From positions 116,609 to 180,608 of the forward strand of contig JADKBZ010000016.1 in the NCBI GenBank assembly GCA_016714815.1: a stretch of 64,000 nt of DNA, read 5' to 3'. Position numbers and translations under genes: made by a program. The notes under the pieces are model-generated. The model did not search any database. It had not been told where the DNA came from and saw only the letters and a program-made list of their open reading frames with translations. Below, piece by piece: positions 7,467 to 30,658 of the stretch. The DNA comes from Holophagales bacterium. Its GTDB lineage: Bacteria; Acidobacteriota; Thermoanaerobaculia; UBA5066. Positions within the stretch are counted from its first letter, which is position 1. Each line of letters starts with the position of its first letter.

Positions 7467-8066
7467 CTACTCCAGCGAGAAGCCGCGGTCGAGGCAGTCG
7501 AGGGCCTCGTCGCCGAGCCGGGCGAGGTCCGCCTTGCCGTCGATGCTGAACCAGTGCCGCATCGTGGCGCGGATGACGCCGATCGCCGCGCCCGCGAAGA
7601 CCCGGGCCCGAAGCTCCGAGGCGTGGCCGGGGCCGGTTCGTTCCCGGAAGGCGCGCGCCATCGCGGCCTCCCAGTCCCGGTCGATCTCGCGCTCGCGGGC
7701 GAGGAGGTCGGGGGAGGTCTGGATCAGCTTCTGCTGGGCGACGAGCTGGGCGCGGTTCGCCATGTACTCGCGGGCGAAGACGGCCGAGGTGCGGCGCAGG
7801 GTCGCCAGCGGCCGCTCGTCCGGCGGGGCGTTCATGAGGAAGGCGACGAAGCGGTCGAGGCGTTCGTGCCGGTGCGGAAAGACGAGGGCTTCCTTGTTCG
7901 GGAAGTAGCGGAAGAACGTCCGCCGGCTGATGCCGACCTCCTCGCAGATCTCGTCGATCGTGGTGGCCTCGAACCCCTTCCGGTGAAAGAGCCGGTTGCC
8001 GATCTCGAGCAGAGCCCGCCGGGTGGCCTCCTTCTTCTTTTCACGAAGGGGCCTTGGCGTTTTCAC
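7467..8066 (-). CDS. TetR/AcrR family transcriptional regulator, divergent from the pfa operon
   Basis: GTG start at 8066 (VKTPRPLREKKKEATRRALLEIGNRLFHRKGFEATTIDEICEEVGISRRTFFRYFPNKEAL is the TetR HTH). The rest of the 772-aa ORF is an antisense shadow of pfaD. Confidence 0.85.
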   Translation of the reverse strand: MKTPRPLREKKKEATRRALLEIGNRLFHRKGFEATTIDEICEEVGISRRTFFRYFPNKEALVFPHRHERLDRFVAFLMNAPPDERPLATLRRTSAVFAREYMANRAQLVAQQKLIQTSPDLLAREREIDRDWEAAMARAFRERTGPGHASELRARVFAGAAIGVIRATMRHWFSIDGKADLARLGDEALDCLDRGFSLE

Positions 8067-8091
8067 ATGCGAAGGATATAACTGCGCCCAA

Positions 8092-8105
8092 GTGAAATAT
8101 GTCAC
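8092..8105. promoter_or_regulatory. imperfect 14-bp palindrome GTGAAATATGTCAC in the AT-rich tetR/pfaD divergent intergenic region; candidate TetR operator
   Basis: It has one mismatch and lies between the tetR start (8066) and the pfaD start (8136). A TATAAC -10-like hexamer sits at about 8076. Confidence 0.25.
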
Positions 8106-8135
8106 TCGGTGCCATTTTCTGAGGACCTCCGCAAC

Positions 8136-9752
8136 ATGAGCTCGACTTCCCTCTCGACCCGCTGGCGCTCGGACGGGCGCCCGCCCGCCTTCACGCCGGC
8201 CGAGATCGGGAGCGCCCTCGAGGAGGTCCGCTCGACGGCCCACGTCGTCCGCGAGGAGGGGGGCCGGATCGGCCTCGGCCTCGGGGGTGAGCTGGGGCCG
8301 CCGGCCGCGGACGCCGCGGGCACCTTCGCCCACCTGGCGTCGCTGCCGCCTCTCTACCCGGAGTGGCTCGGGGACAGGACCTTCTGCGAGACGCACGGCA
8401 CCCGCTTTCCCTACGTCACCGGCTCGATGGCGAACGGGATCGCCTCGGTGCGGCTCGTCTCCGAGATCGCCCGCACGGGCGGACTCGGCTTCTTCGGGGC
8501 GGCGGGCCTCTCGCCGGCGCGCGTCGAGGGGGCCCTGGACGAGCTGCGGCGGGAGCTGGGCGATGCGGGCCTTCCCTGGGGCGCGAACCTGATCCACAGC
8601 CCGAACGAGCCCGAGCTCGAGGAGGCCGTGACGGATCTCTACCTGCGCCGGGGCGTGACGCGGGTGGAGGCGTCGGCCTACATGGCGCTCACTCCGGCGG
8701 TCGTCCGATACGCGGCGACGGGTCTCACGACGGACCCCACGGGGCGGGTTCGAAGGAGGAACCATCTCTTCGCGAAGATCTCGCGCGAGGAAGTGGCGAT
8801 CCGGTTCCTCGAGCCTGCGCCGGCGGAGATCCTCCGGACGCTGGTGGAGAGGGGGCGGCTGACGGCTGCCGAGGCGCGGCTCGCCGAAACGCTGCCGCTC
8901 GCCGAGGACGTCACGGCAGAAGCCGACTCCGGCGGCCACACCGACAACCGGCCGCTGACCGCTCTCCTTCCGGCGATCCTCGGCCTGCGCGACCGGGTCG
9001 CCGCGGAACGCGGCTACGGGCAGGCGGTCCGCGTCGGGGCCGGCGGCGGACTCGGAACGCCCTCGTCGGTCGCGGCGGCGTTCGCCCTCGGCGCCTCCTA
9101 CGTCGTCACCGGCTCGGTGAACCAGGCCTGCGTCGAGAGCGGCCTCCACGAGAGCGGCCGCGCGCTGCTGGCGGAAGCCGGGATCGCCGACGTGATCATG
9201 GCGCCCGCGGCCGACATGTTCGAGCTCGGCGTCACGGTGCAGGTGCTGCGCCGGGGGACGATGTTCGCCGTCCGCGCGAAGAAGCTCTACGAGCTCTACC
9301 GCTCCTGGCCGTCGCTCGAGAGCATCCCGGCCGCCGAGAGGGAGAAGGTCGAGACGCAGCTCCTCCGGGCGACCTTCGCGGAGGCGTGGGAGACGACGCG
9401 CGCCTTCTGGGCCGCCCGTGACCCGCGCGAGGTGGCGAGGGCCGAGGCCGACCCGAAGCACCGGATGGCGCTCGTCTTCCGTTCGTACCTCGGCCTCTCG
9501 AGCCGCTGGGCCGTCGCCGGCGAACCGGGCCGCGGCACCGACTATCAGATCTGGTGCGGCCCGGCGATGGGCGCCTTCAACTCGTGGGTCCGCGGGAGCT
9601 TCCTGGAAAAGCCCGCGGACCGGTCCGCCGTCCAGGTCGCCCGCAACCTGATGGAGGGGGCCGCCGCCGTGACGCGCGCGCAGCAGCTGCGCGCCTCCGG
9701 CCTCGCCGTCCCTTCGTCCGCCTTCGACTTCCGCCCCCGTCCCCTCGCCTGA
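8136..9752 (+). CDS. pfaD: PfaD-family trans-acting enoyl reductase (nitronate monooxygenase-like FMN enzyme) of a PUFA/polyketide synthase
   Basis: Typical PfaD sequence: ...GLGFFGAAGLSPARVEGALDELRRELGDAGLPWGANLIHSPNEPELE... and ...GGGLGTPSSVAAAFALGASYVVTGSVNQACVESG. An alternative ATG lies at 8109. The gene is translationally linked to pfaA. Confidence 0.9.
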   Translation: MSSTSLSTRWRSDGRPPAFTPAEIGSALEEVRSTAHVVREEGGRIGLGLGGELGPPAADAAGTFAHLASLPPLYPEWLGDRTFCETHGTRFPYVTGSMANGIASVRLVSEIARTGGLGFFGAAGLSPARVEGALDELRRELGDAGLPWGANLIHSPNEPELEEAVTDLYLRRGVTRVEASAYMALTPAVVRYAATGLTTDPTGRVRRRNHLFAKISREEVAIRFLEPAPAEILRTLVERGRLTAAEARLAETLPLAEDVTAEADSGGHTDNRPLTALLPAILGLRDRVAAERGYGQAVRVGAGGGLGTPSSVAAAFALGASYVVTGSVNQACVESGLHESGRALLAEAGIADVIMAPAADMFELGVTVQVLRRGTMFAVRAKKLYELYRSWPSLESIPAAEREKVETQLLRATFAEAWETTRAFWAARDPREVARAEADPKHRMALVFRSYLGLSSRWAVAGEPGRGTDYQIWCGPAMGAFNSWVRGSFLEKPADRSAVQVARNLMEGAAAVTRAQQLRASGLAVPSSAFDFRPRPLA

Positions 9753-9787
9753 GCTTCTCCAGACGCCCGTCCGATGCCGAGGCACCT

Positions 9788-12700
9788 ATGACCCACGATC
9801 CCTCCCCGAGCCGTCAGCCCATCGCCGTCGTCGGCGTGAGCGCCCTCTTTCCCGGTTCCACGGACGCCACCGGCTTCTGGAAGGACATCCTCGCCGGGAC
9901 GGACCTGATCCGCGACGTTCCCCCGAGCCACTGGCTCGTCGAGGACTACTACGACCCGGACCCGACCGCGCCCGACAAGACCTACGCGAAGAGGGGCGCG
10001 TTCCTCGACCCGATCGACTTCGACGCGCTCGGCTGGGGCGTCCCCCCGTCGACGATCCCGGCGACGGACACGGCGCAGCTCCTCGCCCTCGTCGTCGCGC
10101 AGCAGGTGCTGCAGGACGCCCTTCGCGAGCAGTTCGAGACGGCGGACCGCTCCCGCGTCTCGGTGATCCTCGGCGTCACGAGCGCGCAGGAGCTCCTCTC
10201 CACGATGACGAGCCGGCTCCAGCGGCCGGTCTGGGTGAAGGCCCTTCGCGAGTCGGGCGTGCCGGAGGAAGAGGTGACGGCGATCTGTGACCGGATCGCC
10301 AGCCACTACGTCCCGTGGCAGGAGTCGACGTTCCCCGGCCTTCTCGGGAACGTCGTTGCCGGCCGCATTGCCAATCGCCTGAACCTGGGCGGGACGAACT
10401 GCGTCACCGACGCCGCCTGCGCATCGACGTTCAGCGCGCTTTCGATGGCCGTCGCCGAGCTGCAGCTGGGGCACAGCGACCTCGTCATCGCGGGCGGCGT
10501 CGACACGCTGAACGACATCTTCATGTTCATGTGCTTCTCCAAGACCCCGGCGCTCTCGCCGAGCGGCGACTGCCGGCCATTCAGCGACAGGGCCGACGGG
10601 ACGATGCTGGGCGAGGGGCTCGGGATGGTCGCCCTCAAGCGCCTCGACGACGCCGAGCGCGACGGCGACCGGATCTACGCCGTCGTGCGCGGCGTGGGGA
10701 CCTCCTCGGACGGCCGCTCCAAGAGCGTCTACGCCCCCGTCCCCGCGGGACAGGCGAAGGCGCTCGGGCGCGCCTACGACCTCGCGGGCTACGGCCCGGA
10801 GACGGTCGAGCTGGTGGAAGCCCACGGGACCGGGACCAAGGCCGGAGACGCTGCGGAGTTCGAGGGGCTCCGGATGGTCTTCGACGGCGCCGGGCGAAAG
10901 GAGCGCCAGTGGTGCGCGCTCGGCTCGGTGAAGAGCCAGATCGGCCACACGAAGGCGGCGGCGGGCGCGGCGGGCCTCTTCAAGGCGATCATGGCGCTCC
11001 ACCACGGAGTGCTGCCGCCGACGATCAAGGTCGACGCCCCGAACCCGAAGCTCGGCCTGCCGGAAAGCCCCTTCTACCTGAGCACGAAGGCGCGGCCGTG
11101 GGTGCGCGACGGCCGCCACCCGCGACGCGCCTCGGTGAGCGCGTTCGGCTTCGGCGGCTCCAACTTCCACGTGGCGCTCGAGGAATACCAGGGGCCGGCG
11201 CCCAAGGCCGAACGGATCCGGACTCTCGCCAGGGAGATGGTCGTCGTCTGCGGAGACGATCCGGCGCAGGTCGTGGCGCAGGCGCGGGAGATCGCGCGAG
11301 AGGCGGCGGGTGGGCCGGGCGGCGCGGGCGCCCGCCGGCTCGCGCGGCTCGCCCACGAAAGCCAGGAGGCCCATCGCCCGGGAGCGGCCGCGCGGCTCGC
11401 GGTTCTCGCGGCGGACGTGGCGAACCTCGCGCAGAAGCTCGCCGAGGCCGCGAAGCGGATCGAAGCCGCGCCGGGAGAGGCTTTCTCGCTGCCGGATGGA
11501 ACTGCCTACGGGGTGGGTCCGTGCGACGGCAAGGTCGCCTTCCTCTTCCCCGGGCAGGGGAGCCAGTACGTCGGGATGGGAGCGGGTCTCGCGATGGAGT
11601 TCCGCGCGGCGCTCGGCGTCTGGGACCACGCGGCGGCCCTCGACCTGGAGGCGGGCGCGACGCTGCACGAGACGGTCTTCCCGCGGCCGGGGTTCGGCGC
11701 CGAGAAGGAGAAGGGCGACCTCGCGAGGCTCACCGCGACGCAGTGGGCGCAGCCCGCCATCGCCTGCGTCTCGCTGTCGCAGCTCGCCCTCCTTCGGGAG
11801 ATCGGGATTGCCGCCGACCTGACCGGAGGGCACAGCCTCGGCGAGGTCGTTGCCCTTCGCGCGGCGGGCGTTCTTTCGAGCGACGCGGACCTCCTGACGG
11901 TGGCCCGTCGCCGCGGCGAGCTGATGGCCGAGGCGGCCGCGATCCCGGGGGCGATGACGGCGCTCAGCCTGCCGGTCGGGACGGTGCGCGAGCTTCTCGC
12001 GCGCCTCGCCCCGCGGGTCGTCGTCGCGAACCACAACGGCCCGACGCAGGTCGTCGTCTCGGGCGCGACGGAGGACGTCGCCGGGCTGGAGGCGAGCCTG
12101 AAGGGCGAGGGGATCTCCTTTCAGCGGCTCCCGGTCGCCACGGCGTTCCACTCCGGGCTCGTCTCGAGGGCCTGTGAGCCGTTCGCCCGCTTCCTCGCGG
12201 AGGTTCCGTTCGGGAGCCCCGCGATCCCGGTCTACTCGAACGCCCTCGCGGCCGAGCACGGCAGCGAGCCCGACGCCCTCCGCTCCGCCCTCGCGAGCCA
12301 GATCGCGAGCGAGGTCCGCTTCGTCGAGATGGTCGAGGCGATGTACGCGGCCGGGGCCCGCACGTTCCTCGAGGTCGGCCCCGGCGCGGTCCTCACGGGG
12401 CTCGTGGGGCGCGTCCTCGACGGGCGGCCTCACCTCGCCGTGAACCTCGACCGGAAGGGGAAGGACGGCGTCGAGTCGCTCCAGCTCGCGCTGACGCGGC
12501 TGGTGGCGGCGGGTGTCGCGATGTCGCCCGCCCGGCTCTTCGCGTCGGACCGTCTTCCGGAGCGGGAGGGCGCTTCTTCCGGCTCGAAGCTCGCCGTCTC
12601 GCTGAGCGGCAGCAACCACGGAAAGCTCTATCCCCCGCCGGGCGGCGCGGCGTCGCTTCCCGCCCCGAATCCTCCGCGACCCGTTCCGCCCGCGCTGCAG

Positions 12701-15700
12701 GCGGCCCCCGCTCCGGCGAGCCCCGCCGCCGCCCCCCTTCGAGAGGACCCGTTGAAGCACGAAACTGCGTTCCCTGCCGCCCCGCTTCCGCCGCCCGCCG
12801 CACCGGCACGTCCCGCGCTCCTGGCCGGATCCCCGTCGGACTGGGTCCTCGCGTTCCAGGAGACGCAGCGGCAGACCGCCGAGGCGCACGCCGTCTACCA
12901 GCGGGCGATGGCCGAGAGCCACTCCTCGTTCCTCCGCGTCGCCGAGTCGGGGATGCTCGGCCTCACCGCGATGGTGACGGGTTCGCCTCTCGCGGCCCCC
13001 GCGCCGCAGCTCTTCAGGGAGCCGGCTGCTCGTCACGTGGCGGAGCCGACGGTGCCGGCGTGGGCGCCGGCTCCGGCCGCGGCCGCGACGCAGGCTCCGA
13101 TGCTGCGCGAGGCCGAGGCCCCGAGTCCGTACCAGGCGCCGCTCCCGGCGCCGGCCGTTGATCGTCCCGCTCCCGCCGCGGCTCCCGTCGCGGCTGCCGT
13201 CGCGGTCCCCGCCGCGGCGCCCCGGGCCGTCGACCTGCAGGCGCTGATGCTCGCGGTCGTGGCGGAGAAGACGGGCTACCCGGCCGACATGCTGAACCTC
13301 GGCATGGACCTCGAGGGCGACCTCGGGATCGACTCGATCAAGAGGGTCGAGATTCTGTCGGCCGTGGCGGACCAGGCGCCCGAGCTCCGGTCGGTCGACA
13401 TGGGGCACATGGGGTCGCTCCGGACGCTCGGCGCGATCGTCGAGTACATGAAGGGGCTCGGACAGGAGGGCCTTTCGACGCCTTCGGCGGCGCCCGCCGC
13501 CAGGCCGCCCGCCGCCGTCGCGGCGCCCTTGGCCGTCGACCTGCAGGCGCTGATGCTGGCGGTCGTGGCCGAGAAGACGGGCTACCCGGCCGACATGCTC
13601 AACCTCGGCATGGACCTGGAGGGCGACCTCGGGATCGACTCGATCAAGCGGGTCGAGATCCTGTCGGCCGTGGCGGACCAGGCGCCGGAGCTGCGATCGG
13701 TCGACATGGGGCACATGGGGTCGCTGCGCACTCTCGGCGCCATCGTCGAGTACATGAAGGGGATCGGAGAGCCTGGGCTCGCCGCGTCCGCGGGTGCGCC
13801 CGCCGCGGCACTGCCCTCCGCCGCCCCGGTGGTTCCCGTGGCCGCGGCGAGCGACGCGAAGGCCGCGCCCCGTCTGGGCCGTTTCGTCCTCGAGCGAATC
13901 GTCGCGCCGACGACCGGGCTCGCGCAGCCCGGGCTTCTGGGAGGGGGCGAGGTCTGGATCACGGGCTCGGCCGAGCTGGACGAGCCGCTGGCCACGGAGC
14001 TGCGCGCGCGGGGCGTGAACGCGAAGGCGACGTCGAGCCTTCCCGCCGGGGCGACCGCCTGCGTCTACCTCGGCGGCCTTCGCGACGTCGCGGACGTCGA
14101 CGCGGCGATCGCCGTCAACCGCGAGGCGTTCGCCCTCGCGCGTACCCTTGCCGCCCGGCTCGAGAAGGAGCGTGGCCTCTTCGTGACGGTGCAGGACACG
14201 GGCGCCGCCTTCGGAACGTCGCCGATGGATCCGCGTCGCGCCTGGCTCGCGGGGCTTCCGGCTCTGGTGAAGACGGCCGCTCAGGAATGGCCCAGCGCGT
14301 CCCTGAAGGCCGTGGACCTCGAGCGGGGCGGCCGTGGGCCGGAGGCGCTGGCGAAGGCCCTGGCGACCGAGCTGCTCGAAGGGGGCGGCGAGGCGGAGGT
14401 CGCGCTCCCCGCGTCGGGCGGCCGGTTCACGCTTCGCAGCGTCGAGAGGTCCGTCGAGACGGGAGCGCCCGTGATCGTCCCCGGCGACGTCGTCGTCGTC
14501 TCGGGCGGCGCCCGGGGCGTCACGGCCGCGTGCGTCGAGGAGTGGGCCCGGGAGAGCCGCGCGCGCTTCGTCCTCCTCGGCCGGACGCCGCTCGCGCCGG
14601 AGCCCGCCTGCTGTGCGGGGGTCGCGGACGAGGCGGGCCTGAAGAAGGCGCTTCTCGCCGAGTCCCGGAGCCAGGGGCGGAGCCCCGCGCCGGCCGAGCT
14701 CGGCGCCGAGGTGCACGACGTCCTCTCGAATCGCGAGATCCGCCGGACCCTCGCGGCGATCGAGGCCGCGGGGGGCGAGGCGCGCTACGAGGCCGTGAGC
14801 GTCGGCGACGCCGCGGCGCTCTCCGGCGTTCTCGCGCGGGTCCGCTCCGAGTGGGGCCCCGTCGCCGGGCTGGTCCACGCCGCCGGGGTCCTGGCCGACC
14901 GGAACATCTCGCAGAAGACCGACGAGCAGTTCGACCGGGTCTTCGACACGAAGGTGGAGGGGCTCCGCGCGCTCCTCGCCGCGACCGCCGGCGACCCGCT
15001 GAAGCTCCTCTGCGTCTTCTCGTCGGTGTCGGCCCGCTGCGGCAACAACGGCCAGGCGGACTACTCCATGGCGAACGAGGTCCTCGCGAAGGTCGCCTGG
15101 GCCGAGTCCCGCCGCCGTCCGGAAACTCTCGTGAAGTCGTTCGGCTGGGGGCCCTGGGAAGGCGGAATGGTGACGCCCGCTCTCAAGGAGCGGTTCGCGG
15201 CACTCGGCGTTCCGATGATCCCGCTGGCCGTCGGTGCCCGGATGTTCGTCGACGAGCTCCGCGGCGCGCAGCCGGCGGAGGTGGAGCTCGTCCTCGGGGG
15301 AGAGCCGAAGGCGGAGGCGCTCCTCTTCGCGGGGGCCGAGGCCCGGGTCCAGGAGCTCGAGCTGAAGGTCCAGCGGGGGAGCCACGGCTACCTCGACGGG
15401 CATTCGATCAAGGGAACCCCCGTCGTCCCGGTCGTCCTCGCGGCCGAGTGGCTCTCGCGCGCGGCCCGCTCGTTCCGGCCCGGCCTCGTCCTCGCCGCCC
15501 TGCACGACCTCAGGGTCCTCAAGGGGATCCGGCTCGGAGGCTTCGACAACGGGGGCGACCGGTTCGTGATCCAGGCCCGTCCGCTTCCGAGCAGCCGGGG
15601 CGCAGAGCTGCAGCTCGACGTCCGCAGTTCGGCCGGGACCCTCCACTACAGCGCCCGGGCCGAGCTTCTTCCCGAGCTCGACGCCCACGGTCCGGCGCTT

Positions 15701-16150: not shown

Positions 16151-16154
16151 CTTC

Positions 16155-19100
16155 ATGGCCTTCGCCCCGATCGCCATCGTTGGGCGGTCGTGCGTCCTTC
16201 CGGGCGCGCTCGACCCGTCCGCGCTCTGGGAGCTCGTCGCCGCGGGGCGCGACCTCGTCGGCCCGGCGCCGGAGGGGCGCTGGGGGCTCGACCGCGACCA
16301 GATCCTCCGGGACGCGGGCGGCCCGGCGCCGGACGCCGCCTGGTCCGACCGGGGCGGCTACGTCGAGGGCTTCGAGACGATCTGGAATCCGGAGGGGTTC
16401 GGCGTCGGCGCGAAGGAGCTCGACGGGCTCGACCAATTGGTTCCCTGGGTTCTCCACACGGCCCGCGAGGCGTTCCGGGACGCCGGGGACGAGAAGGCGG
16501 GTATCGCAGGCGCGACCGCCGCGGGCTCGGTGACCCGGCCGCGGACCGGCGCCATCTTCGGAAACCTCGGCTTCCCCTCGGAGGGGATGGCCGCTTACGC
16601 CCGGAGCGTCTGGACCGGCGGCGGCCTCGGCCCCGGGGGAATCGCCGTCGACCCGCGAAACCGCTTCATGAGCGGCGGCACCGCGGCCCTCCTCCGCCGC
16701 GCGCTGGGGCTCGGAGCGGGCGTGTTCTCCATCGACGCCGCCTGCGCGAGCGCCCTCTACGCCCTCAAGCTCGCCTGCGACCGCCTCCACGACGGCGACG
16801 CCGACGTGATGCTCGCGGGCGCCGTGCAGCGCGCCGACGACCTCTTCCTGCACGTCGGCTTCACCGCTCTCGGCGCCCTGAGCCGGAGCGGTCGCTCGCG
16901 CCCCTTTCACCGGGAGGCCGACGGCCTCGTCCCGGCTGAGGGGGCCGCCTTCGTTGTCCTGAAGCGCCTCGACGACGCGCGGCGCGACGGAAACACGATT
17001 CACGGCGTGATCCGGGGCGTCGGGCTCGCGAACGACGGGCGGGGAAAGGGGCTCCTCGCCCCGTCCGAGGAGGGCCAGGAGCGGGCGATCCGGGCCGCGT
17101 ACGAGGAGGCGGGGCTCGGCCCGGAGCGGGTCTCCCTGATCGAGGCGCACGCCACGGGAACGCCGGTCGGAGACGGTGCGGAAGTTCGCAGCACGGGCGC
17201 GGTCTACGCGGGGCTCTCCGGCGTGCCGCTCGGGTCGCTCAAGTCGAACCTGGGGCACCTGATTACCGTCGCCGGCGTGGCCGGGCTGCTGAAAGTGCTC
17301 GGAGCGATGAAGGCCGGAATGCGGCCGCCGACGCTCCACGCGGGGGAACCGCTCGACGCGCTCGCCGGCTCCCCCTTCCGGCTCGTCGAACGGCTCGAGC
17401 CGTGGCCGTCCGACGGGCCGAGGGTCGCCTCGGTCTCGGCCTTCGGCTTCGGCGGGAACAACGCGCACCTGATCGTCTCGGAGGACGACCCGGAGCTCGG
17501 CGGCTCGTCCGCTTCGCGTGCCGGGGCTTCGAGGGCTCCGCTCGCTCCCGCGCTCGCCGTCGTCGGGCTCGGCTGCGCCGTGTCGAGCGCCGCGGACCGG
17601 ACGCGGTTCGCGCAGGCGCTCTTCTCCAGCGAGAGCCTCCTCGACGGGCGGGGCGAGGGCCGGATGGGCCCCGTCGAGCTCGACCTCGACGGGCTCCGCT
17701 TTCCGCCGAGGGACCTCGGCCAGACGCTGCCGCAGCAGCTCGCGATCCTGCGGGCCGCCGGCGAGGCGCTCGACGGGTGCGGGGCGCTCCCGCGCGAGCG
17801 GACCGGGATCTTCGTCGGGATGGAGCCCGACCCCGAGGTCGCCCGCTGGGGGACGCGCTGGCGCCTCGCCCGGACGGCGCGCGAGGCCGGAGCGCCGCCG
17901 GAGTGGCTCGGGAAGGCGCGCGACGCGGTCGTTCCCGTTCTCGAGTCGGCCTCCGTCGTCGGGACGATGCCGAACATCCCGGCCAACCGGCTCAGCTCCC
18001 AGCTCGATCTCGGCGGCCGCGCCTTCACCGTGCAGGCGGGAGAAGCCTCGGGAACCGTCGCGCTGTCTCTCGCGATGAGGGCCCTTCGGAGAGGCGAGCT
18101 CGACGCGGCTCTCGTCGGCGCCGTCGACCTCTCCTCCGAGAGCGTCCAGAGGAGCGCGATCGGGTCCCTCGCCCCAGAGGGGAAGGCGATCCCGCCCGGA
18201 GACGCCGCGGTGCTCCTCATCGTCAAGCGGCTGGAGGACGCCGAGCGGGACGGCAACCGGGTGTACGCGTTGATCGACGAGGTCGAAGAAGAGACGGAGA
18301 GAAAGGCGAAGAAGGCGAAGGAAGCGGAAAAGAAGACGAAGCAGAAGGAAGAAGGGCCGGGAGGAGACGAAGCGCTCCTCGAGCTCGACGGCGAAGGGCC
18401 GATGAGCCTCGTCCCGCGTTTCGGGCACGCCTGGGCCGCGTCGGACCTCGTCCACGTCGCCGCGGCGGCGCTGAGCCTCCACCATCGCAGGCTTCCCGGC
18501 GGCAAGCCGTGGCTGCCGCAGGACCCGTCGGCCCGGGTCGCCGGCGTCGGGATGACGAACGGCCCGCGGATCCGGCTCACCGAGGCCGGTGGGCACGCCC
18601 GTCGCGCCGAGGACGATCCGCCGCGGCTGCACCTCTTCGCGGGAGCCGATCGCACGGAGGTGATGGACGCGCTCCGGACGGGGCGCGAGGGGACCGGCGA
18701 GGAGTCGGGAGCCCGCCTCGCGTTCGTGGCGACGGGCGGCTCCTTCGCGAACGTGCGGGCGCGCGCACTCTCGCACCTCGAGACGGGAGCCCCTGCCGGC
18801 CCGGGAATCCACTTCCGCGAGCGGCCGCTCGGCGGCGAGCTGGGGTTCATCTTTGCCGGCGCCGGAGCGGCCTATCGCGGCATGGGCCGCGACCTGCTCG
18901 AGCGGCTCCCCTCGCTCGCCGTCTCGCTCTCGCGCCGCAGCCGGAGGCTTCCCCGCGCGCTCGCCTGGTCCTTCGAGGACGACTCCCGCGAGCCGACCGT
19001 CCTGGAGCAGCTCTGGGGGGCCTCGGCCCTCTGTCAGCTCCACGCCGGGCTGACCCTGGGCCTCCTCGGGCTCACGCCGGATGCCTGGATGGGCTATTCC

Positions 19101-22100
19101 TCGGGCGAGACGAACGCGCTCCTGGCCTCGGGAACGTGGAACGACATCGACGCTCTCGTGGCGGAGGGCGAGAGCTCGGGCCTCTTCACCCGGGAGCTCG
19201 GCGGGAGCTTCGCGGCGGTCGAACGCGCATGGGGCGTTCCCGTTCGCTGGGCGTCGTGGACCGTCCTCGCGCCCGTCGCCGACGTGAAAGCCGCGCTCGC
19301 GGGCGAGGAGAGGGTCCACCTCGCGATCGTCCACGGCGACGACGAATGCGTCGTCTCCGGCGACGAGGAGGCCTGCGCCCGCGTCGTCGAGGCGCTGGGG
19401 CCGAGCCGGGGCGTGCGCCTCGGCTACCCGCTCGCCGTCCACGTTCCCGAGCTCGACGCGGTCCGCGAGGAGTGGCTTTCCCTGCACCGCCGGCCGACGA
19501 CGCCGCCTCCTCCGGCCGGGTCGAATCCGCCCGCCCGCTTCTACACGAACGCCACCGGCGTCCGCTACGTGCCGACGTCCGAGAGCTGCGCGCAGGCGAT
19601 CCTCGGCCAGGCGAACCGGACGCTCGACCTGCGCCCGACCATCCTCGCGGCCTGGGAGGACGGCGTCCGCGTCTTCGTCGAGCACGGGCCGCAGGCGGCC
19701 TGCGGCCGCTGGATCCGCGCGATCCTCGGCGAGCGCGAGGCGCTCGTCGTCAGCCTCGACCGGAAGGGGCAGGGCCTCGAGGCGACGCTCGACGCCGTCG
19801 CGGCGCTCGTCGCCGCGGGCGTGCCGATGCGCGCCGGCGCTCTCGGCGAGCTCGACGCGATGCTGCGCGCCGAACGGCCCTCTCCTCCGAGCGGCCGGAG
19901 CGTGACGTTCCCGGCGCACCTTCCCGAGATCTCCCTTCCGAAGGTCCCGGCACCTGGCCTCCCGTCCGGCCTCGCGGGTGCTCGCGTCATGGCCCCGGCT
20001 CCGGCCCTGCCCGCGGTCGTCGACGAAGACTGGGCTCCGCGGCGGCGCGACCCCGACGTCCCGGCCGCTCCGCCCGTTCCGCCCGCCGAGACCGTTCCCT
20101 TGCCCGTGCGCGCGGTGCACGCGGCCGTTTCGCCCTCGCCCGTCTCCGTCGCTTCTCCCGTCCTCGACGGCTTCCGCGCGCACGTCGCGCAGCTCTCGCA
20201 GATCCAGCAGGACTTCGTCCTGGCGCAGCAGGCGCTGCACGAGCGCTTCCTCTCGGGGCGCGGCGCGGCGATGGAGACGTTCCTTTACGCGGCCCGTCTG
20301 GCGGGAACGGCGGAGAGTGTTCCGGCGTCGCCGCCGGGTCCGACCGTTTCGACCTCCACGCCGGCGGACGTCCGTGTGATTCCGATGTCCCCGGCGGCCG
20401 CGGCGCGTCCGGCGGCTTCGCCGTCCGTCGAGGCCCCTCGCGCCGGTGGCGATCCCGTCGGCCCCCGCTTCGACCGCGGCCAGCTCGAGATTCACGCCGG
20501 AGGGCGGATCTCCGGGCTCTTCGGCCCGGAGTTCGCCGCGCAGGACCGCCACGTTCGGCAGGTCCGGATGCCGCTCCCGCCGCTTCTCCTCGCCGACCGC
20601 GTCGTCGGCCTCGCGGCCGAGCCGGCGAGCATGGGGAAGGGAACGATCTGGACCGAGACCGACGTGACGTGGGATTCCTGGTACCTGCACCAGGGGCACA
20701 TGCCGGCGGGCGTGATGATCGAGGCGGGGCAGGCCGACCTGATGCTCATCTCGTACCTCGGCGTCGACCTCCTGAACAGGGGAGAGCGGGTCTACAGGCT
20801 CCTCGGCTGCGAGCTGACGTACCACGGCGACCTGCCGCGGGCCGGCGACACGCTCCGCTTCGGGATCCACGTGGACGGCCACGCGGCGCAGGGCGCCGTG
20901 CGGCTCATGTTCTTCCACTACGACTGCGTCAACGGCGGCCGGCCGCAGCTGACGGTGCGCAAGGGCCAGGCGGGCTTCTTCACCGACGAGGAGCTCGCCG
21001 CCTCCGCCGGGTGCCTCTGGAGCCCGGAAGAGCAGCCGGTCGTTCCCGATCCGCGCCTGGCGTCCCCCGCGGCTCGCTCGGAGCGGAGCCGCTTCGAGAG
21101 GGAAGACCTCGACGCGTTCGCCCGTGGCGACGCGTTCGCCTGCTTCGGCCCGGGTTTCGAGAAGGCGCAGACCCACACCCGGAGCCCGCGGATCCAGGAA
21201 GGGCGGATGCTCCTGCAGGACCGCGTCACCGACCTCGACGTCGCGGGTGGAGCGTGGGGGCGCGGCTACCTGCGCGCGGAGCTCGACGTTCGCCCCGACC
21301 TCTGGTTCTTCGACGGCCACTTCAAGAACGACCCGTGCATGCCCGGGACGCTGATGTTCGAGGGGTGCCTGCAGGCGATGGCGTTCTACCTCGCGGCCCT
21401 CGGCTTCACGCTTCCCCGCGACGGCTGGCGGTTCCGGCCCGTCCCCGACCTGCCGTACCAGCTTCAGTGCCGAGGCCAGGTCACCCCCTCGTCGCACCGC
21501 CTCGTCACGGAGGTGTTCGTCGAGGAGGTCGTCGACGGACCGGTCCCGACTCTCTACGCCGACCTTCTCTGCACGGTCGACGGCCTGAAGGCGTTCCACG
21601 CGCGGCGCGTCGCGCTCGAGCTCGTCCCCGACTGGCCTCTCGAGGCGATGCCGGCCCTCCTCGCCGAGGCCGCGAGAGACACGCGGCCGACGGCCGAGTC
21701 CGGCGGCTTCCGCTTCGACCAGGCGAGCCTCCTGGCCTGCGCGTGGGGAAAGCCGTCGAAGGCCTTCGGGCCGATCTACACGCGCTTCGACGGGCCGGGG
21801 CGCGTCGCCCGCCTCCCGGGGCCGCCCTACCTCTTCATGAGCCGCGTGACCCGGGTCGACGGCCCGATCGGTGTGATGAAGCCGGGGGCGTCGGTGACGG
21901 TCGAGTACGACGTTCCGGCCGACGCCTGGTACTTCGGCGAGAACGGCTGCCGGACGATGCCGTTCGCCGTCCTCCTCGAGGCGGTGCTGCAGCCGTGCGG
22001 CTGGCTCTCGAGCTACGTCGGCTCGGCGCTCAGCGTCGACGAGGAGCTCGGCTTTCGCAACCTCGACGGGACGGGGACGCTCCTCGGCGAGGTCTTCCCC

Positions 22101-24857
22101 GGCACCGGCACGCTCACGACGCGCGTGAAGCTGAACACCGTCTCGGCGACCGGCGCGATGATCATCGAGTCGTTCGAGGTGACCTGCTCCGCGGGGGACA
22201 GGCCGGTCTACGAGATGAAGACCGTCTTCGGCTTCTTCCCGCCGGCCGCGCTCGCCAACCAGGCCGGTCTGCCGATCCCCGATGCCCACCGCGAGCTCCT
22301 CGAGAGGCCGAGCGACTTCCTCGTCGACCTCACCGCACGGCCGCCGGCATTCTTCGACCCGCGCCGGCCGCGGCTCGCCGGTCCGATGCTCCTGATGCTC
22401 GACCGCGTCGACGGCCTCTGGCCCGCCGCGGGGAAGGCGGGCCTCGGCCAGCTGCGGGCCGTGAAGGACGTCGACACGGACGAGTGGTTCTTCAAGGCCC
22501 ACTTCTTCCAGGACCCGGTGCAGCCCGGCTCCCTCGGGATCGAGGCGATGATCCAGGCGCTGCAGCTCTTCATGCTCCAGGCGGGGATGGACGACGGGAT
22601 CGCCGCGCCCCGCTTCGAGGCCATCGGCGTGGAAACGCCCCTGACCTGGAAGTACCGCGGGCAGGTTCTCCCGCACCACCGGACCGTTCACACCACGATC
22701 GAGATCACGGCGGCGGGGCGGGACGAGCGGGGTGCGTGGGCGACGTGCGACGCGAGCCTCTGGTCGGACGGGCGGCGGATCTACGAGGCGGCGAACCTCG
22801 GCATGCGGATCGTCGCGGGCGAGCCGGAATCCGGTGCCCGCGCAGGGGAGATCGTCCTCGACCCCGGCCACGACCTGTGGCTACAGGACCACCGTCCCAC
22901 CTGGACCGCGCCCGCCCTCCCGATGATGAGCATGGTCGACCTCCTCGCCCGCGGCTCCACGGGCGACGGTCCGGTGACCGGCCTCAGGGACCTGCGGGTG
23001 AGCGGCTGGTTCCTCGTGAGCGAGCCGCGGCGGCTCCGCTGTGAGCAGTGCGGCGAGAGCGTCCGGCTTCTCGCCGTCGAGCCGGACGGCGAGAAGGAGG
23101 TCGCGCGCGCGTCGGTGCGGCACGGGAAATACGCGCCCCGCCCCGATCCGCTTCCCGAGGCCCGTGGCGTGGAGGTCCCGCTCCCTTACGAAACGGGCGC
23201 GCTCTTCCACGGACCGGCATTCCAGGTCGTCGAGCGCCTCGTGATGGGGCGGGGAGAGTGCTCGAGCCTGCTTCGTGCTGCGAGCGGCGTCCCCGCGAGC
23301 CTTCTCAATCCGGGGCTTCTCGACGGCGCCACGCACGGCATTCCCCACGCGGACCTCCACTCGTGGGACGACGCTTCCGATCCGGGGAAGGTCGCCTTCC
23401 CCGCGTTCCTCCCCGAGATCGACTTTTTCGGGCCGACGCCGGTCACGGGGACCCTCCGCTGCGAGGTCCGCCAGCAGCCGTACTTCGGAAGCGCCGACTA
23501 CCCGGTCTTCCTCGTCCAGCTCATCGGGCCCGATGGCGTCTGGTGCCAGCTCCGGCTCGTCGAGTCGTCCTTTCCCAAGGGGCCGCTCGGCTCGGCGGAG
23601 CCGGCCGCGCGCCGCGAGTTTCTCCGCGACCGTTCCCCGGTCGAGGGGCTGCGCCTCTCGCGCGTCGAGGAGGGCGTCACGGTCCTGACGGACGCCCAGG
23701 TCGCGGCGACCGACTGGCTGGCCGGCACCGTCGCGGCCCTCTACGGCTCGCGCGAGACCGAGGCGATCGCCCGCGCCGAGCACGCCGCGGCCGCCCACGC
23801 GCTCCACCCGGGCCGGGTCTTCGCGCAGCTCCCGCTCACCCGCTTCGACCTCGAGGCCCGCCGCACGGGGGGTGAGGTGCGCGTCTCGGGCGACGGCCGG
23901 GGAACGCTCGATCTCTCGCCCCTCCGGAAGTTCTGGACGCGCTGGTTCGACCGCGGGCCGTGGCCCGTAGAGGACCTCTACTACGGCCTCGTCGGCCGCT
24001 TCGTCGACCGCGTCGTCGTCGAGGACCCGGCGGCCTACGCCGCGCTGCGGGGCCGGAGCGTCCTCTACCTCGCGAACCACCAGACGGGCGTCGAGTCGCT
24101 CCTCTTCTCGATCGTCGCGTCGGCGCTGAACGAGGTCCCGACGGTGACCCTCGCCAAGATCGAGCACAGGGAGACCTGGCTCGGGCGGCTCATCGCGCAC
24201 GCCTTCTCGTACCCGGGCGTCACCGACCCGCGCGTCATGACGTTCTTCGACCGGGAGGACAAGGCGAGCCTCGTCCGCGTCATCGGCGAGCTCGCCGCCG
24301 AGATGACGGGGCCGGGGCGCTCCGTCATGGTCCACGTGGAGGGAACGCGCGCCCTGAGCTGCCGCAGCCGGGTCGAGAAGATGAGCGGCGCCTTCCTCGA
24401 CCTGGCGATGAAGGTCGGTGCCCCCGTCGTCCCGGTGCGGTTCGTCGGCGGCCTCCCCGCGGACCCCCTCGAGACGCGCCTCGAGTTCCCCTTCGGGATG
24501 GGCCGCCAGGAGATCCACTTCGGTGCCCCCCTGATGCCCGAGCGCCTCGCCGCCCTTCACTACGGCGCCCGCAAGGAGCTCGTCCTCTCGGCGATCAACG
24601 GCCTCGGAATCCCGAATGCGAGGGAGCGGCCCTTCCCCGGCGACCCGGTGTTCGCGGGTCGCGTGAACGCCTGGCAGGCCGCGTGCGGCGTCGCTCACGA
24701 GCACGCGACGCTCCACGAGGTCCTCGCGGAGCTGGAGAACCCCGGAGACGAAATCCGCCGGCTCCTGGCGGCCCCGTCCGCGGCCGCGCTCGCGGGGGAC
24801 GAGAGCCCGGAGGGGCGGTGGCTCGCGGAGCTGGGCCGCAGACTGCTGGGAGGGTGA
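16155..24857 (+). CDS. pfa3: PUFA synthase Pfa3/PfaC-like protein: KS, CLF, AT, 2 x FabA-like DH (each with a pseudo-DH partner) and a C-terminal AGPAT (1-acylglycerol-3-phosphate acyltransferase) domain
   Basis: The KS Cys is in IDAACASALYAL and the CLF lacks a Cys. The AT has GYSSGE. FabA motifs are FFDGHFKNDPCMPGTLMFEG and FFKAHFFQDPVQPGSLGIEA. The C-terminal acyltransferase motifs are LANHQTGVES and HVEGTR. ATG at 16155 lies 4 nt after the pfaA stop. Confidence 0.95.
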   Translation: MAFAPIAIVGRSCVLPGALDPSALWELVAAGRDLVGPAPEGRWGLDRDQILRDAGGPAPDAAWSDRGGYVEGFETIWNPEGFGVGAKELDGLDQLVPWVLHTAREAFRDAGDEKAGIAGATAAGSVTRPRTGAIFGNLGFPSEGMAAYARSVWTGGGLGPGGIAVDPRNRFMSGGTAALLRRALGLGAGVFSIDAACASALYALKLACDRLHDGDADVMLAGAVQRADDLFLHVGFTALGALSRSGRSRPFHREADGLVPAEGAAFVVLKRLDDARRDGNTIHGVIRGVGLANDGRGKGLLAPSEEGQERAIRAAYEEAGLGPERVSLIEAHATGTPVGDGAEVRSTGAVYAGLSGVPLGSLKSNLGHLITVAGVAGLLKVLGAMKAGMRPPTLHAGEPLDALAGSPFRLVERLEPWPSDGPRVASVSAFGFGGNNAHLIVSEDDPELGGSSASRAGASRAPLAPALAVVGLGCAVSSAADRTRFAQALFSSESLLDGRGEGRMGPVELDLDGLRFPPRDLGQTLPQQLAILRAAGEALDGCGALPRERTGIFVGMEPDPEVARWGTRWRLARTAREAGAPPEWLGKARDAVVPVLESASVVGTMPNIPANRLSSQLDLGGRAFTVQAGEASGTVALSLAMRALRRGELDAALVGAVDLSSESVQRSAIGSLAPEGKAIPPGDAAVLLIVKRLEDAERDGNRVYALIDEVEEETERKAKKAKEAEKKTKQKEEGPGGDEALLELDGEGPMSLVPRFGHAWAASDLVHVAAAALSLHHRRLPGGKPWLPQDPSARVAGVGMTNGPRIRLTEAGGHARRAEDDPPRLHLFAGADRTEVMDALRTGREGTGEESGARLAFVATGGSFANVRARALSHLETGAPAGPGIHFRERPLGGELGFIFAGAGAAYRGMGRDLLERLPSLAVSLSRRSRRLPRALAWSFEDDSREPTVLEQLWGASALCQLHAGLTLGLLGLTPDAWMGYSSGETNALLASGTWNDIDALVAEGESSGLFTRELGGSFAAVERAWGVPVRWASWTVLAPVADVKAALAGEERVHLAIVHGDDECVVSGDEEACARVVEALGPSRGVRLGYPLAVHVPELDAVREEWLSLHRRPTTPPPPAGSNPPARFYTNATGVRYVPTSESCAQAILGQANRTLDLRPTILAAWEDGVRVFVEHGPQAACGRWIRAILGEREALVVSLDRKGQGLEATLDAVAALVAAGVPMRAGALGELDAMLRAERPSPPSGRSVTFPAHLPEISLPKVPAPGLPSGLAGARVMAPAPALPAVVDEDWAPRRRDPDVPAAPPVPPAETVPLPVRAVHAAVSPSPVSVASPVLDGFRAHVAQLSQIQQDFVLAQQALHERFLSGRGAAMETFLYAARLAGTAESVPASPPGPTVSTSTPADVRVIPMSPAAAARPAASPSVEAPRAGGDPVGPRFDRGQLEIHAGGRISGLFGPEFAAQDRHVRQVRMPLPPLLLADRVVGLAAEPASMGKGTIWTETDVTWDSWYLHQGHMPAGVMIEAGQADLMLISYLGVDLLNRGERVYRLLGCELTYHGDLPRAGDTLRFGIHVDGHAAQGAVRLMFFHYDCVNGGRPQLTVRKGQAGFFTDEELAASAGCLWSPEEQPVVPDPRLASPAARSERSRFEREDLDAFARGDAFACFGPGFEKAQTHTRSPRIQEGRMLLQDRVTDLDVAGGAWGRGYLRAELDVRPDLWFFDGHFKNDPCMPGTLMFEGCLQAMAFYLAALGFTLPRDGWRFRPVPDLPYQLQCRGQVTPSSHRLVTEVFVEEVVDGPVPTLYADLLCTVDGLKAFHARRVALELVPDWPLEAMPALLAEAARDTRPTAESGGFRFDQASLLACAWGKPSKAFGPIYTRFDGPGRVARLPGPPYLFMSRVTRVDGPIGVMKPGASVTVEYDVPADAWYFGENGCRTMPFAVLLEAVLQPCGWLSSYVGSALSVDEELGFRNLDGTGTLLGEVFPGTGTLTTRVKLNTVSATGAMIIESFEVTCSAGDRPVYEMKTVFGFFPPAALANQAGLPIPDAHRELLERPSDFLVDLTARPPAFFDPRRPRLAGPMLLMLDRVDGLWPAAGKAGLGQLRAVKDVDTDEWFFKAHFFQDPVQPGSLGIEAMIQALQLFMLQAGMDDGIAAPRFEAIGVETPLTWKYRGQVLPHHRTVHTTIEITAAGRDERGAWATCDASLWSDGRRIYEAANLGMRIVAGEPESGARAGEIVLDPGHDLWLQDHRPTWTAPALPMMSMVDLLARGSTGDGPVTGLRDLRVSGWFLVSEPRRLRCEQCGESVRLLAVEPDGEKEVARASVRHGKYAPRPDPLPEARGVEVPLPYETGALFHGPAFQVVERLVMGRGECSSLLRAASGVPASLLNPGLLDGATHGIPHADLHSWDDASDPGKVAFPAFLPEIDFFGPTPVTGTLRCEVRQQPYFGSADYPVFLVQLIGPDGVWCQLRLVESSFPKGPLGSAEPAARREFLRDRSPVEGLRLSRVEEGVTVLTDAQVAATDWLAGTVAALYGSRETEAIARAEHAAAAHALHPGRVFAQLPLTRFDLEARRTGGEVRVSGDGRGTLDLSPLRKFWTRWFDRGPWPVEDLYYGLVGRFVDRVVVEDPAAYAALRGRSVLYLANHQTGVESLLFSIVASALNEVPTVTLAKIEHRETWLGRLIAHAFSYPGVTDPRVMTFFDREDKASLVRVIGELAAEMTGPGRSVMVHVEGTRALSCRSRVEKMSGAFLDLAMKVGAPVVPVRFVGGLPADPLETRLEFPFGMGRQEIHFGAPLMPERLAALHYGARKELVLSAINGLGIPNARERPFPGDPVFAGRVNAWQAACGVAHEHATLHEVLAELENPGDEIRRLLAAPSAAALAGDESPEGRWLAELGRRLLGG

Positions 24858-26482: not shown

Positions 26483-26528
26483 CAGCGGACGGAGGCCCGC
26501 CGCGCGGGTCGCGGAGGACCGGGGTACC

Positions 26529-27662
26529 ATGGGCGCGGCCATGATCGTCCTCGTCGATTCGTCGCTCGCGGAGGACTCGGAGGAACGGAGGCTGACCCTC
26601 GAGAGCCTCACGAACCTTCCGGGGATCGAGGTCCGCGTCCACACCATCCGGGGGGCCCGGCAGACCCTCACCGAGATCTACCTGATCGGCGACACCGCCC
26701 GCCTCTCCGTCGAGGAAATCTCCGCCCTGCCGGGCGTGGAGCGGGTCGTCCGCGTCTCGGAGGAGTACCGGATCCTCGGGCGGCACAAGGACGACAGCCG
26801 GGCCGCCGGCTTCACGTACAACGGCGTCTCCTTCACCGAGGACAACCTCAACGTCTTCGCCGGCCTCTGCGCCGTCGACACGAAAGAGAGCGTCGAGGAG
26901 ATGTTCCGGGCGCTTCGGCAGCACGGTCAGGTCTGCAGCCGGATGGGGGCCTACAAGCCGCGTTCGAGCCCGTACTCGTTCCAGGGGCACGGCAAGGCGT
27001 GCCTGCCGTGGGTCTTCGAGCTCGCGGGCAAGTACGGGATCAGGGTGATCGCCATGGAGATCACGCACGAGAGCCACGTGGACGAGGTGGCCGAGAGCCT
27101 GGAGCGGACCGGGCACCCGACGGGCGTGATGCTCCAGATCGGCACGCGCAACATCCAGAACTTCGAGCTCCTCAAGGTCGTCGGCCGGCAGCGGGAGTTC
27201 CCCATCCTCGTCAAGAGGGGCTTCGGCATCTCGCTGAGCGAATCGCTCAACGCCGCCGAGTACCTCGCGAGCGAAGGGAAGACGGAGATCGTCTTCTGTC
27301 TCCGGGGCGTGAAGACGAACCTGGGCGACCCGCACAGGAACCTCGTCGACTTCTCCCACGTGCCGGTCGTCAAGCGGCTGACGCGGATGCCGGTCTGCGT
27401 CGACCCGTCGCACTCCGTTGGCTCGCGCGAGCGCGCGCCCGACCGGATGCTCGACCTGATGCACGTGACGGCGCAGGGAGTCGTGGCCGGGGCCGACATG
27501 GTCCTCGTCGACTTCCACCCCGCGCCGGCGAAGGCTCTCGTGGACGGGCCGCAGGCCCTGCTTCTCAAGGAGCTGCCGTGGTTCCTCGAGGACGTCGCCC
27601 TCGCCCGGGAATGCTACGAGAAGCGCCGCGCGCTGGTCGGGCGTCACGCGGCGGCGTCTTAG
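26529..27662 (+). CDS. 3-deoxy-7-phosphoheptulonate (DAHP) synthase, type I-beta, with an N-terminal regulatory domain
   Basis: GAYKPRSSPYSFQG matches the KPRTSPYSFQG motif of I-beta DAHPS/KDO8PS. Motifs LQIGTRNIQN and VDPSHS are present, with an extra domain of about 110 aa at the N-terminus. Confidence 0.85.
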   Translation: MGAAMIVLVDSSLAEDSEERRLTLESLTNLPGIEVRVHTIRGARQTLTEIYLIGDTARLSVEEISALPGVERVVRVSEEYRILGRHKDDSRAAGFTYNGVSFTEDNLNVFAGLCAVDTKESVEEMFRALRQHGQVCSRMGAYKPRSSPYSFQGHGKACLPWVFELAGKYGIRVIAMEITHESHVDEVAESLERTGHPTGVMLQIGTRNIQNFELLKVVGRQREFPILVKRGFGISLSESLNAAEYLASEGKTEIVFCLRGVKTNLGDPHRNLVDFSHVPVVKRLTRMPVCVDPSHSVGSRERAPDRMLDLMHVTAQGVVAGADMVLVDFHPAPAKALVDGPQALLLKELPWFLEDVALARECYEKRRALVGRHAAAS

Positions 27663-30600: not shown

Positions 30601-30658
30601 CTCGACTCATGCGAAGGATTCACTGGATTCATGATATCGCTGCGCCTACGCTTCGCCC

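Follow-up and report, generated by a model that had tools for sequence, protein, structure and literature searches.

A probable intact polyunsaturated fatty acid-type synthase operon with an AGPAT-fused Pfa3 on a contig assigned to the Thermoanaerobaculia

We analysed a 64,000-nucleotide stretch of contig JADKBZ010000016.1 (assembly GCA_016714815.1), referred to throughout as the window, in which positions 7467-24857 carry genes of a polyunsaturated fatty acid (PUFA)-type synthase, the Pfa system. These comprise a tetR-family regulator gene and, on the opposite strand, the synthase genes pfaD, pfaA and pfa3, with a short intergenic element between tetR and pfaD:

7467-8066, minus strand: tetR-family regulator, 199 aa, divergent from pfaD (Pfam TetR_N 1.2e-15, TetR_C_14 4.4e-11)
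8074-8114, no strand assigned: tetR-pfaD intergenic element, consisting of the box GGATATAAC (8074-8082) and the palindrome TGTCAC-TCG-GTGCCA (8100-8114)
8136-9752, plus strand: pfaD (pfa1), trans-acting enoyl reductase, 538 aa (TIGR02814 pfaD_fam 1.5e-186; Pfam NMO, FabD_helical_ins)
9788-16150, plus strand: pfaA (pfa2-like), 2120 aa, KS-AT-ACP-ACP-KR-DH (TIGR02813 omega_3_PfaA)
16155-24857, plus strand: pfa3-like gene, 2900 aa, KS-CLF-AT-DH'-DH(FabA)-DH'-DH(FabA)-DH4-AGPAT-helical tail (Pfam)

PfaD scored 620 bits on TIGR02814 against a curated cut-off of 449, and PfaA scored 1429 bits on TIGR02813 against 1010. A preliminary description of this DNA had recognised the Pfa1/Pfa2/Pfa3 arrangement, and both the gene order and these scores, far above the cut-offs, bear it out. 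The 5' end of the operon is formed by pfaD, directly upstream of pfaA, and its ATG at 8136 carries a GAGGA box upstream (8121-8125). The start of tetR was read from the sequence as a GTG at 8066, 69 bp from pfaD on the opposite strand; the gene is called at the same length of 199 aa in near-identical contigs. From the pfaD stop to the pfaA ATG there are 35 nt, and from the pfaA stop to the pfa3 ATG 4 nt, with zero overlaps. The three synthase genes are surely co-transcribed, and the order first described (tetR, then divergently pfaD, pfaA-like and pfa3-like) stands; calling them translationally coupled was too strong, because they are close but non-overlapping. G+C content of the window is ~72%, and genuine genes are marked by a G+C at third codon positions (GC3) of ~0.9. 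Scans of the cluster for intrinsic terminators and sigma-70 promoters returned nothing above chance, and the window gave no tRNA, rRNA or Rfam family matches. We put at roughly 85% the probability that 7467-24857 is an intact four-gene PUFA-type synthase operon, Type L-like and equivalent to the myxobacterial Pfa1/Pfa2/Pfa3 set, chromosomally inherited in a Thermoanaerobaculia host.

Domain searches resolved PfaA into six catalytic or carrier domains:

9815-11296, plus strand: KS, aa 10-503 (ketoacyl-synt 4e-57, Ketoacyl-synt_C 2e-39, KAsynt_C_assoc), Cys in DAACAS at aa 208-213
11540-12502, plus strand: AT, malonyl/acyl transferase, aa 585-905 (Acyl_transf_1 6e-44), GHSLGE at aa 681-686
13250-13447, plus strand: ACP 1, aa 1155-1220 (PP-binding 5e-08), LGIDS Ser motif at aa 1179-1184, repeat copy 1
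13556-13753, plus strand: ACP 2, aa 1257-1322 (PP-binding 7e-08), LGIDS at aa 1281-1286, repeat copy 2
14492-15160, plus strand: KR, aa 1569-1791 (Pfam KR 1.9e-32), motifs GGARGV and YSMAN
15365-16138, plus strand: PKS-type DH, aa 1860-2117 (PS-DH and PKS_DH_N slightly under threshold), HSIKGTPVVP (HxxxGxxxxP), within the TIGR02813 match

The motifs DAACAS, HGTGT, GHSLGE, GGARGV, YSMAN and HSIKGTPVVP are all present. There are exactly two ACPs, as first described: two LGIDS motifs occur, a tandem repeat of 306 bp in 2.0 copies with 88% matches spans both domains, and the linkers flanking them gave no further PP-binding match in Pfam. That two ACPs would be unusual and hint at another product, as had also been suggested, finds no support in a census of relatives. 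In 27 clusters of the AGPAT type whose pfaA is complete, the window among them, two ACPs were commonest, with one ACP in 6 clusters, two in 11, three in 5, four in 2 and five in 3, and tblastn counts were concordant. ACP number is reported to range from two to over ten and to affect yield or productivity (PMC4882568). On this census we rejected the idea that two ACPs mark a distinct product class.

Pfa3 contains a longer series of domains:

16167-17489, plus strand: KS, aa 5-445 (ketoacyl-synt 6e-43, Ketoacyl-synt_C 5e-32), DAACAS at aa 194-199
17679-18149, plus strand: CLF, KS-like, aa 509-665 matched (ketoacyl-synt 8.8e-22), no active-site Cys
18846-19715, plus strand: AT, PfaB-like, aa 898-1187 (Acyl_transf_1 7e-13), GYSSGE at aa 980-985
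20571-21602, plus strand: first pseudo-DH, aa 1473-1575, and FabA-like dehydratase/isomerase, aa 1683-1816 (FabA 1.2e-05 and 1.5e-37), FFDGHF at aa 1718-1723
21813-22790, plus strand: second pseudo-DH, aa 1887-2021, and FabA-like dehydratase/isomerase, aa 2075-2212 (FabA 3.6e-06 and 7.4e-40), FFKAHF at aa 2112-2117
22845-23594, plus strand: DH4, PKS-type double-hotdog dehydratase, ~aa 2231-2480
24051-24443, plus strand: AGPAT, PlsC-like acyltransferase core, aa 2633-2763 (Acyltransferase PF01553)
24645-24854, plus strand: C-terminal helical tail, aa 2831-2900, five high-confidence modelled helices, family-conserved

In the CLF, the sequence AGEASG stands at the KS Cys position, with Glu replacing Cys. 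The AT matched TIGR02816 pfaB_fam at 2.6e-19, under that model's cut-off. The second FabA domain is separated from the AGPAT by ~360 residues in which Pfam found only PS-DH below threshold. The first half of this region retains an invariant His2246, FHGPAF and D2390xxxH, and we assign it on these grounds as a DH4 of the Minicystis rosea type, a domain that the earlier Pfa3 domain list had omitted. Domain searches, the check that the preliminary description had proposed, detected AGPAT, FabA-type DH and CLF alike. The C-terminal AGPAT fusion is further supported by canonical motifs II-IV (FxxR, EGTR and a proline-containing motif IV) and by a modelled acyltransferase fold, the predicted structure of DH4-AGPAT having a mean confidence (pLDDT) of 93.4. 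Conserved columns in the helical tail are W2889, L2890, E2892, L2893 and L2897. Apart from AGPAT motif I, considered below, the catalytic motifs of PfaA and Pfa3 are intact and invariant in diverse homologues. A search for an exact copy of Pfa3 returned no record; full-length homologues at 85% identity exist.

We compared this architecture with described systems. The nearest is the arachidonic/docosatetraenoic acid (AA/DTA)-type synthase of Minicystis rosea (Gemperlein et al. 2019, PMC6731297), which has the same order (ER; KS-AT-ACPn-KR-DH; KS-CLF-AT-DH2-DH3-DH4-AGPAT), a PKS-type DH4 with a conserved active-site His before the AGPAT, and a phosphopantetheinyl transferase (PPTase) encoded elsewhere, a gene that the window does not contain either. 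By described architecture, the window differs in its host phylum and in its dedicated divergent TetR. The Pfa1/Pfa2/Pfa3 clusters of Aetherobacter and Sorangium (PMC4882568) share the pfaD-first operon, the fused pfaB/C-type gene and the C-terminal AGPAT; however, Aetherobacter Pfa3 lacks the DH4 and Sorangium Pfa3 lacks the AT domain, both of which the window has. Type L of Shulse & Allen (2011; PMC3098273) likewise has a 5' pfaD homologue and a fused pfaBC [KS-CLF-DH2-AT], beyond which the window Pfa3 carries an internal AT and DH4. Type L occurs in at least two phyla (Streptomyces, Nakamurella, Plesiocystis), and the only type that the same survey reported in Acidobacteria was Type R, a single pfaA-like gene plus a PPTase (PMC3098273). 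A pfaD-A-B/C cluster in Acidobacteria making 6-12% eicosapentaenoic acid (EPA) was published in 2022 and likened by its authors to the Sorangium cluster (PMC8841776). Its hosts, Acanthopleuribacter pedis and Sulfidibacter corallicola, have pfaD, pfaA, a fused pfaB/C and pfaE elsewhere, but belong to a different, Holophagae-related class and are marine and animal-associated. Since their clusters are absent from the best 80 related loci in GTDB genomes, which we surveyed for architecture, they lie farther from the window than its own clade does. No pfa genes were reported in the other acidobacterial genomes examined in that study (PMC8841776), and our full-text literature searches found nothing on Thermoanaerobaculia PUFA synthases.

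The domain content most likely describes an iterative synthase resembling type I fatty acid and polyketide synthases, whose chemistry we take from published homologues. Malonyl units would be loaded by the PfaA AT onto the two tandem ACPs, and the chain would be extended iteratively by the PfaA KS together with the Pfa3 KS-CLF pair. In each cycle, whether a cis double bond stays would be set by the KR, both PKS-type DHs (that of PfaA and the DH4 of Pfa3), the pair of FabA-like dehydratase/isomerases and PfaD acting in trans. In Minicystis rosea Pfa3, DH4 alters the product spectrum and mutation of its active-site His reverts the change (PMC6731297). The finished acyl chain would leave the ACP via the PfaB-like AT and/or the PlsC-like AGPAT and be esterified directly to lysophosphatidic acid, giving phosphatidic acid; PfaB is described as a terminal long-chain acyltransferase (PMC12895367), and the presumed role of the AGPAT is acylation of 1-acylglycerol-3-phosphate at sn-2 (PMC6731297). 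The divergent TetR would probably repress pfaD-pfaA-pfa3 via the palindrome at 8100-8114 in response to an acyl ligand. By analogy, the product is most likely a long-chain unsaturated fatty acid. Because the domain set, with both the second AT and DH4 present, comes nearest to the Minicystis AA/DTA-type enzyme, our best guess, favoured only slightly, is a C20-22 PUFA; from the sequence it may be C18 or C20-22, and n-3 or n-6.

Several points weigh against reading the locus as an intact operon of this kind. The AGPAT motif I is NHQTGVE, that is HX4E in place of the canonical HX4D; both residues, His and Glu, are unchanged across 23 members of the family, and Glu may be able to replace Asp. Among the scanned open reading frames (ORFs) of the window there is no PPTase gene (pfaE), so that ACP activation would depend on a gene elsewhere; pfaE also lies outside the cluster in myxobacteria and Acanthopleuribacter (PMC8436480, PMC8841776). 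In GCA_964268905.1, which represents the same population, pfaA is diverged and frameshifted from ~10.8 kb and split into five gene calls, and window positions 9.9-16.5 kb fall outside the coverage of the near-identical independent assemblies retrieved. On the product side, PUFA production has yet to be demonstrated for many clusters of this general type, those of Streptomyces among them (PMC3098273), and Sorangium yields only linoleic acid (PMC4882568), owing to which the label 'long-chain PUFA' is not assured.

The strongest competing explanation, well short of an even chance yet to be taken seriously, is that the synthase makes another secondary lipid instead of a long-chain PUFA, such as an acid with a shorter chain or fewer double bonds, of the kind that Sorangium makes with its related cluster, or an olefin or wax-ester precursor. 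Most non-marine pfa types have no known product, hydrocarbon synthesis can draw on Pfa synthases (PMC3098273), and 6 kb downstream of pfa3 lies a LysR-controlled operon for a short-chain dehydrogenase/reductase (SDR), a WS/DGAT, a hydrolase, an acyl-CoA dehydrogenase and a kinase. That operon is, however, unlinked to the pfa cluster in the Thermoanaerobaculia metagenome-assembled genome (MAG) STL-ACI12, and the scanned window ORFs include no ole genes. The two-ACP argument carries no weight given the modal count and the tie of ACP number to yield (PMC4882568). Moreover, the window Pfa3 keeps the AT whose absence has been proposed to lie behind Sorangium's lack of EPA and docosahexaenoic acid, and it has both FabA-type dehydratase/isomerases and the DH4, like the arachidonic/docosatetraenoic acid synthase of Minicystis rosea.

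We consider it improbable that the cluster is decaying or non-functional, or that the window is an assembly mosaic, although the assemblies of this population do not agree throughout. The contig of GCA_964268905.1 (L081, CAXWMI010000025.1) matches the window at 100% identity as far as ~10.8 kb and at 83-92% with many indels thereafter (compared to ~17447). Short contigs of the same population stop at 9.7-9.9 kb, a JGI contig starts near 10.7 kb, and Pfa3 is called as two pieces of 1892 and 1008 aa in JGI contig L085. The break near 10.8 kb may reflect a mosaic of strains, a recombination event within pfaA, or an artefact of assembly or consensus calling. Against decay, both giant ORFs of the window are unbroken (2120 and 2900 codons) with a GC3 of 0.91-0.92 typical of coding sequence, the catalytic motifs are intact as described above, and gene and domain order are the same as in STL-ACI12. 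Two independent assemblies confirm window positions 16525-37664 at 99.7-99.8% identity, and the frameshifts in other assemblies could just as well be sequencing or consensus errors.

Gene matches, together with the gene order shared with STL-ACI12 (below), place the host in the Acidobacteriota, class Thermoanaerobaculia, from wastewater-type metagenomes. The aminopeptidase P (AmpP) encoded beside tetR has counterparts of 100% identity on GCA_964268905.1 and wastewater-metagenome contigs and one of 90% identity in STL-ACI12; the majority of its named matches are Thermoanaerobaculia or Acidobacteria. A nearby VWA protein passes TIGR03436 acidobact_VWFA with 120 bits against a cut-off of 81. Pfa3 homologues with 66-85% identity form ~20 distinct 90%-identity clusters, of which several are named Thermoanaerobaculia, and the top GTDB Pfa3 loci are those of STL-ACI12 and 'Acidobacteria RA.bin138', at 80% each. 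The acidobacterial background and VWFA signature noted in the preliminary description were thus corroborated.

Judged from its neighbourhood and composition, the cluster is vertically inherited within this lineage and not recently transferred. STL-ACI12, on a 1.5-Mb contig, retains the order NDK, RMD1-like, VWA, OmpA, pseudouridine synthase, AmpP, tetR, pfaD, pfaA; its PfaD and PfaA KS are 91% identical to those of the window and its Pfa3 domains 74-89%, so that pfa divergence is about that of AmpP. The cluster has a G+C of 0.72-0.75 against 0.69-0.73 in the flanks and a GC3 of 0.91-0.92, with no anomaly. No mobile-element genes were found among the scanned ORFs flanking the cluster, and no synteny with STL-ACI12 was found within 10 kb downstream of pfa3. 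Vertical inheritance is argued from the retained upstream synteny, the unremarkable composition and the AmpP-like divergence. These same findings speak against the recent horizontal transfer that the preliminary description had raised; the other option it offered, an under-described clade of pfa systems, fits better. As a minor difference, STL-ACI12 has an additional 555-aa MutS domain-V (MutS_V) gene between AmpP and tetR (L089 11290-12957).

We next placed Pfa3 among its relatives in a neighbour-joining tree of residues 1-2225 from 68 loci, which is distance-based, with 50 replicates and without characterised reference sequences, and whose deep nodes call for caution. The window groups with loci L001 and L017 at 100% bootstrap, and the sister of this group, also at 100%, consists of Xanthomonadales-type clusters (Tahibacter, Rhodanobacteraceae, Lysobacterales). 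The combined clade next joins mixed MAGs including Myxococcales, and five further Acidobacteriota loci are placed elsewhere. As the tree is incongruent with taxonomy at phylum level, ancient inter-phylum transfers of pfa clusters are likely. The nearest non-acidobacterial relatives in this tree are thus gammaproteobacterial and not myxobacterial, a new finding; the best myxobacterial-labelled Pfa3 matches (Nannocystaceae, Enhygromyxa, Polyangiaceae, Myxococcota MAGs) reach 47-57% identity. The Xanthomonadales-type clusters (Tahibacter aquaticus DSM 21667 and Rhodanobacteraceae and Lysobacterales MAGs; loci L004, L008, L011, L018, L021, L045 and L052) have the window's tetR-pfaD-pfaA-pfa3 layout, with tetR found in six of the seven, a TetR 58-71% identical to that of the window, the intergenic TATA box and palindrome in common with it, and 2-4 ACPs. 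Unlike the window Pfa3, theirs ends after the second FabA domain, without DH4 or AGPAT, which would imply that this lineage has lost the off-loading end or uses a separate release enzyme.

Recent acquisition from Myxococcota into an acidobacterial genome is the least probable of the explanations weighed. In its favour, pfa phylogeny conflicts with taxonomy at phylum level, the Acidobacteriota loci L005, L012, L015, L020 and L040 fall outside the window's 100%-supported clade, downstream synteny with STL-ACI12 is not shared, and 15.7 kb away there is a remnant of the 3' end of pfa3. Against it, the closest relatives are all Thermoanaerobaculia or Acidobacteria at 80-85% (myxobacterial-labelled matches reach ~53-57% at best), the sister clade is gammaproteobacterial, upstream synteny is retained, pfa divergence equals that of the flanking housekeeping gene, and neither GC and GC3 nor the flanking genes bear signs of a mobile element or foreign composition.

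Reviews describe the AGPAT fusion as restricted to (terrestrial) myxobacterial clusters (PMC4882568, PMC8436480), and the preliminary description had likewise called the architecture myxobacterial. Our survey contradicts this: an AGPAT region was present on Pfa3 in 41 of the 80 loci. Their labels, which could be wrong in single cases as the surveyed loci are mostly MAGs (several on contigs of 0.2-1.5 Mb), include Acidobacteriota (Thermoanaerobaculia, Terriglobia), Planctomycetota, Actinomycetota (Acidimicrobiia) and Desulfobacterota (Desulfobacterales); alpha-, beta- and gammaproteobacterial Pseudomonadota (Rhodocyclaceae, Rhodoferax, Methylobacter, Azospirillum, Caulobacteraceae); and Bacteroidota (Flavobacterium), Bdellovibrionota, Oligoflexia, Bradymonadales and Myxococcota. 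When the AGPAT and tail together served as a HMMER query, 396 representative clusters matched at E<=1e-30, and in almost all of them the region lay at the C-terminus of a large protein. Judged from these homologues, the AGPAT-fused design is common in many bacterial phyla and not specifically myxobacterial, in conflict with a statement repeated in the literature.

Upstream of pfaD, we found a conserved candidate TetR operator, which is new here. Orthologues of tetR at 52-88% identity adjoin pfaD in 10 related loci, and the C-terminal domain of the window TetR is MftR-like. Alignment of the intergenic region from 11 loci of several phyla showed an invariant TATA core in the box at 8074-8082 and TG.CAC/GTG.CA half-sites in the palindrome, for which the consensus among loci is TG(T/C)CAC-N3-GTG(C/G)CA. 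Across the 64-kb window there is a single occurrence of this pattern, where 0.03 would be expected. A sigma-70 consensus scan gave no match at the element. From the conservation we infer the box to be a candidate -10 region and the palindrome a candidate operator at which TetR would act on the pfa operon. Together, the regulator and its candidate operator offer a testable handle on the regulation of such clusters.

We tentatively suggest, as an idea that stands somewhat below even odds, that the AGPAT-terminated, DH4-containing synthase is a multi-phylum module for putting polyunsaturated chains straight into phosphatidic acid, that a subclade of Thermoanaerobaculia, Xanthomonadales-type and some Myxococcota clusters is governed by a TetR switch of its own that acts at a conserved operator, and that uncultured wastewater and soil Thermoanaerobaculia are unrecognised non-marine producers of long-chain PUFA phospholipids. 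The findings extend the biotechnologically used myxobacterial Pfa1-3 enzyme type to an uncultured acidobacterial class and enlarge the pool of natural variants (ACP number, DH4, AGPAT presence) for engineering; the understanding of how Pfa synthases work is unchanged by them.

Downstream of the cluster, the ORF directly after pfa3 (25012-26544) had no Pfam or NCBIfam match; its counterpart in near-identical contigs, of 509-554 aa, carries a precomputed PF00496 (SBP_bac_5) assignment, and both its start codon and family are uncertain. The neutral-lipid module mentioned above occupies 29656-36165, where a LysR gene is divergent from a tight operon of SDR, WS/DGAT (TIGR02946, 418 bits), alpha/beta hydrolase, acyl-CoA dehydrogenase and an APH-family kinase. 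WS/DGAT genes are also found near several actinobacterial pfa loci, at 26-30% identity.

Farther downstream lies the pfa3 relic, ~200 bp long, between a gene of unknown function and an SPFH gene:

40395-40595, plus strand: pseudogene fragment, a relic copy of the 3' end of pfa3, matching its final codons with 69% amino acid identity (67 codons) and 82% nucleotide identity (172 bp)

We rejected this 40.4-kb match to the Pfa3 tail as a stand-alone small gene: it has no start codon, and its frame continues beyond the Pfa3 terminus. A weaker similar fragment lies 4.7 kb downstream of pfa3 (23388-23582) in the Planctomycetota locus L025. Next to the relic, 40607-48487 holds three minus-strand SPFH/Band-7 paralogues (40607-41785, ~45966-47213 and 47210-48487) that bracket a block of 62% GC (~42000-46000) with an S8 subtilase gene (42116-44983) and an ORF of unknown function; the block may be an insertion into the paralogue array. 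GC also falls to ~62% from 58 kb to the window end (57786-64000 region). There, a 239-aa ORF (57786-58505) has a match confined to the N-terminal part of the large chain of carbamoyl-phosphate synthase and appears truncated, and it is followed by a 1054-aa ORF without a confident family.

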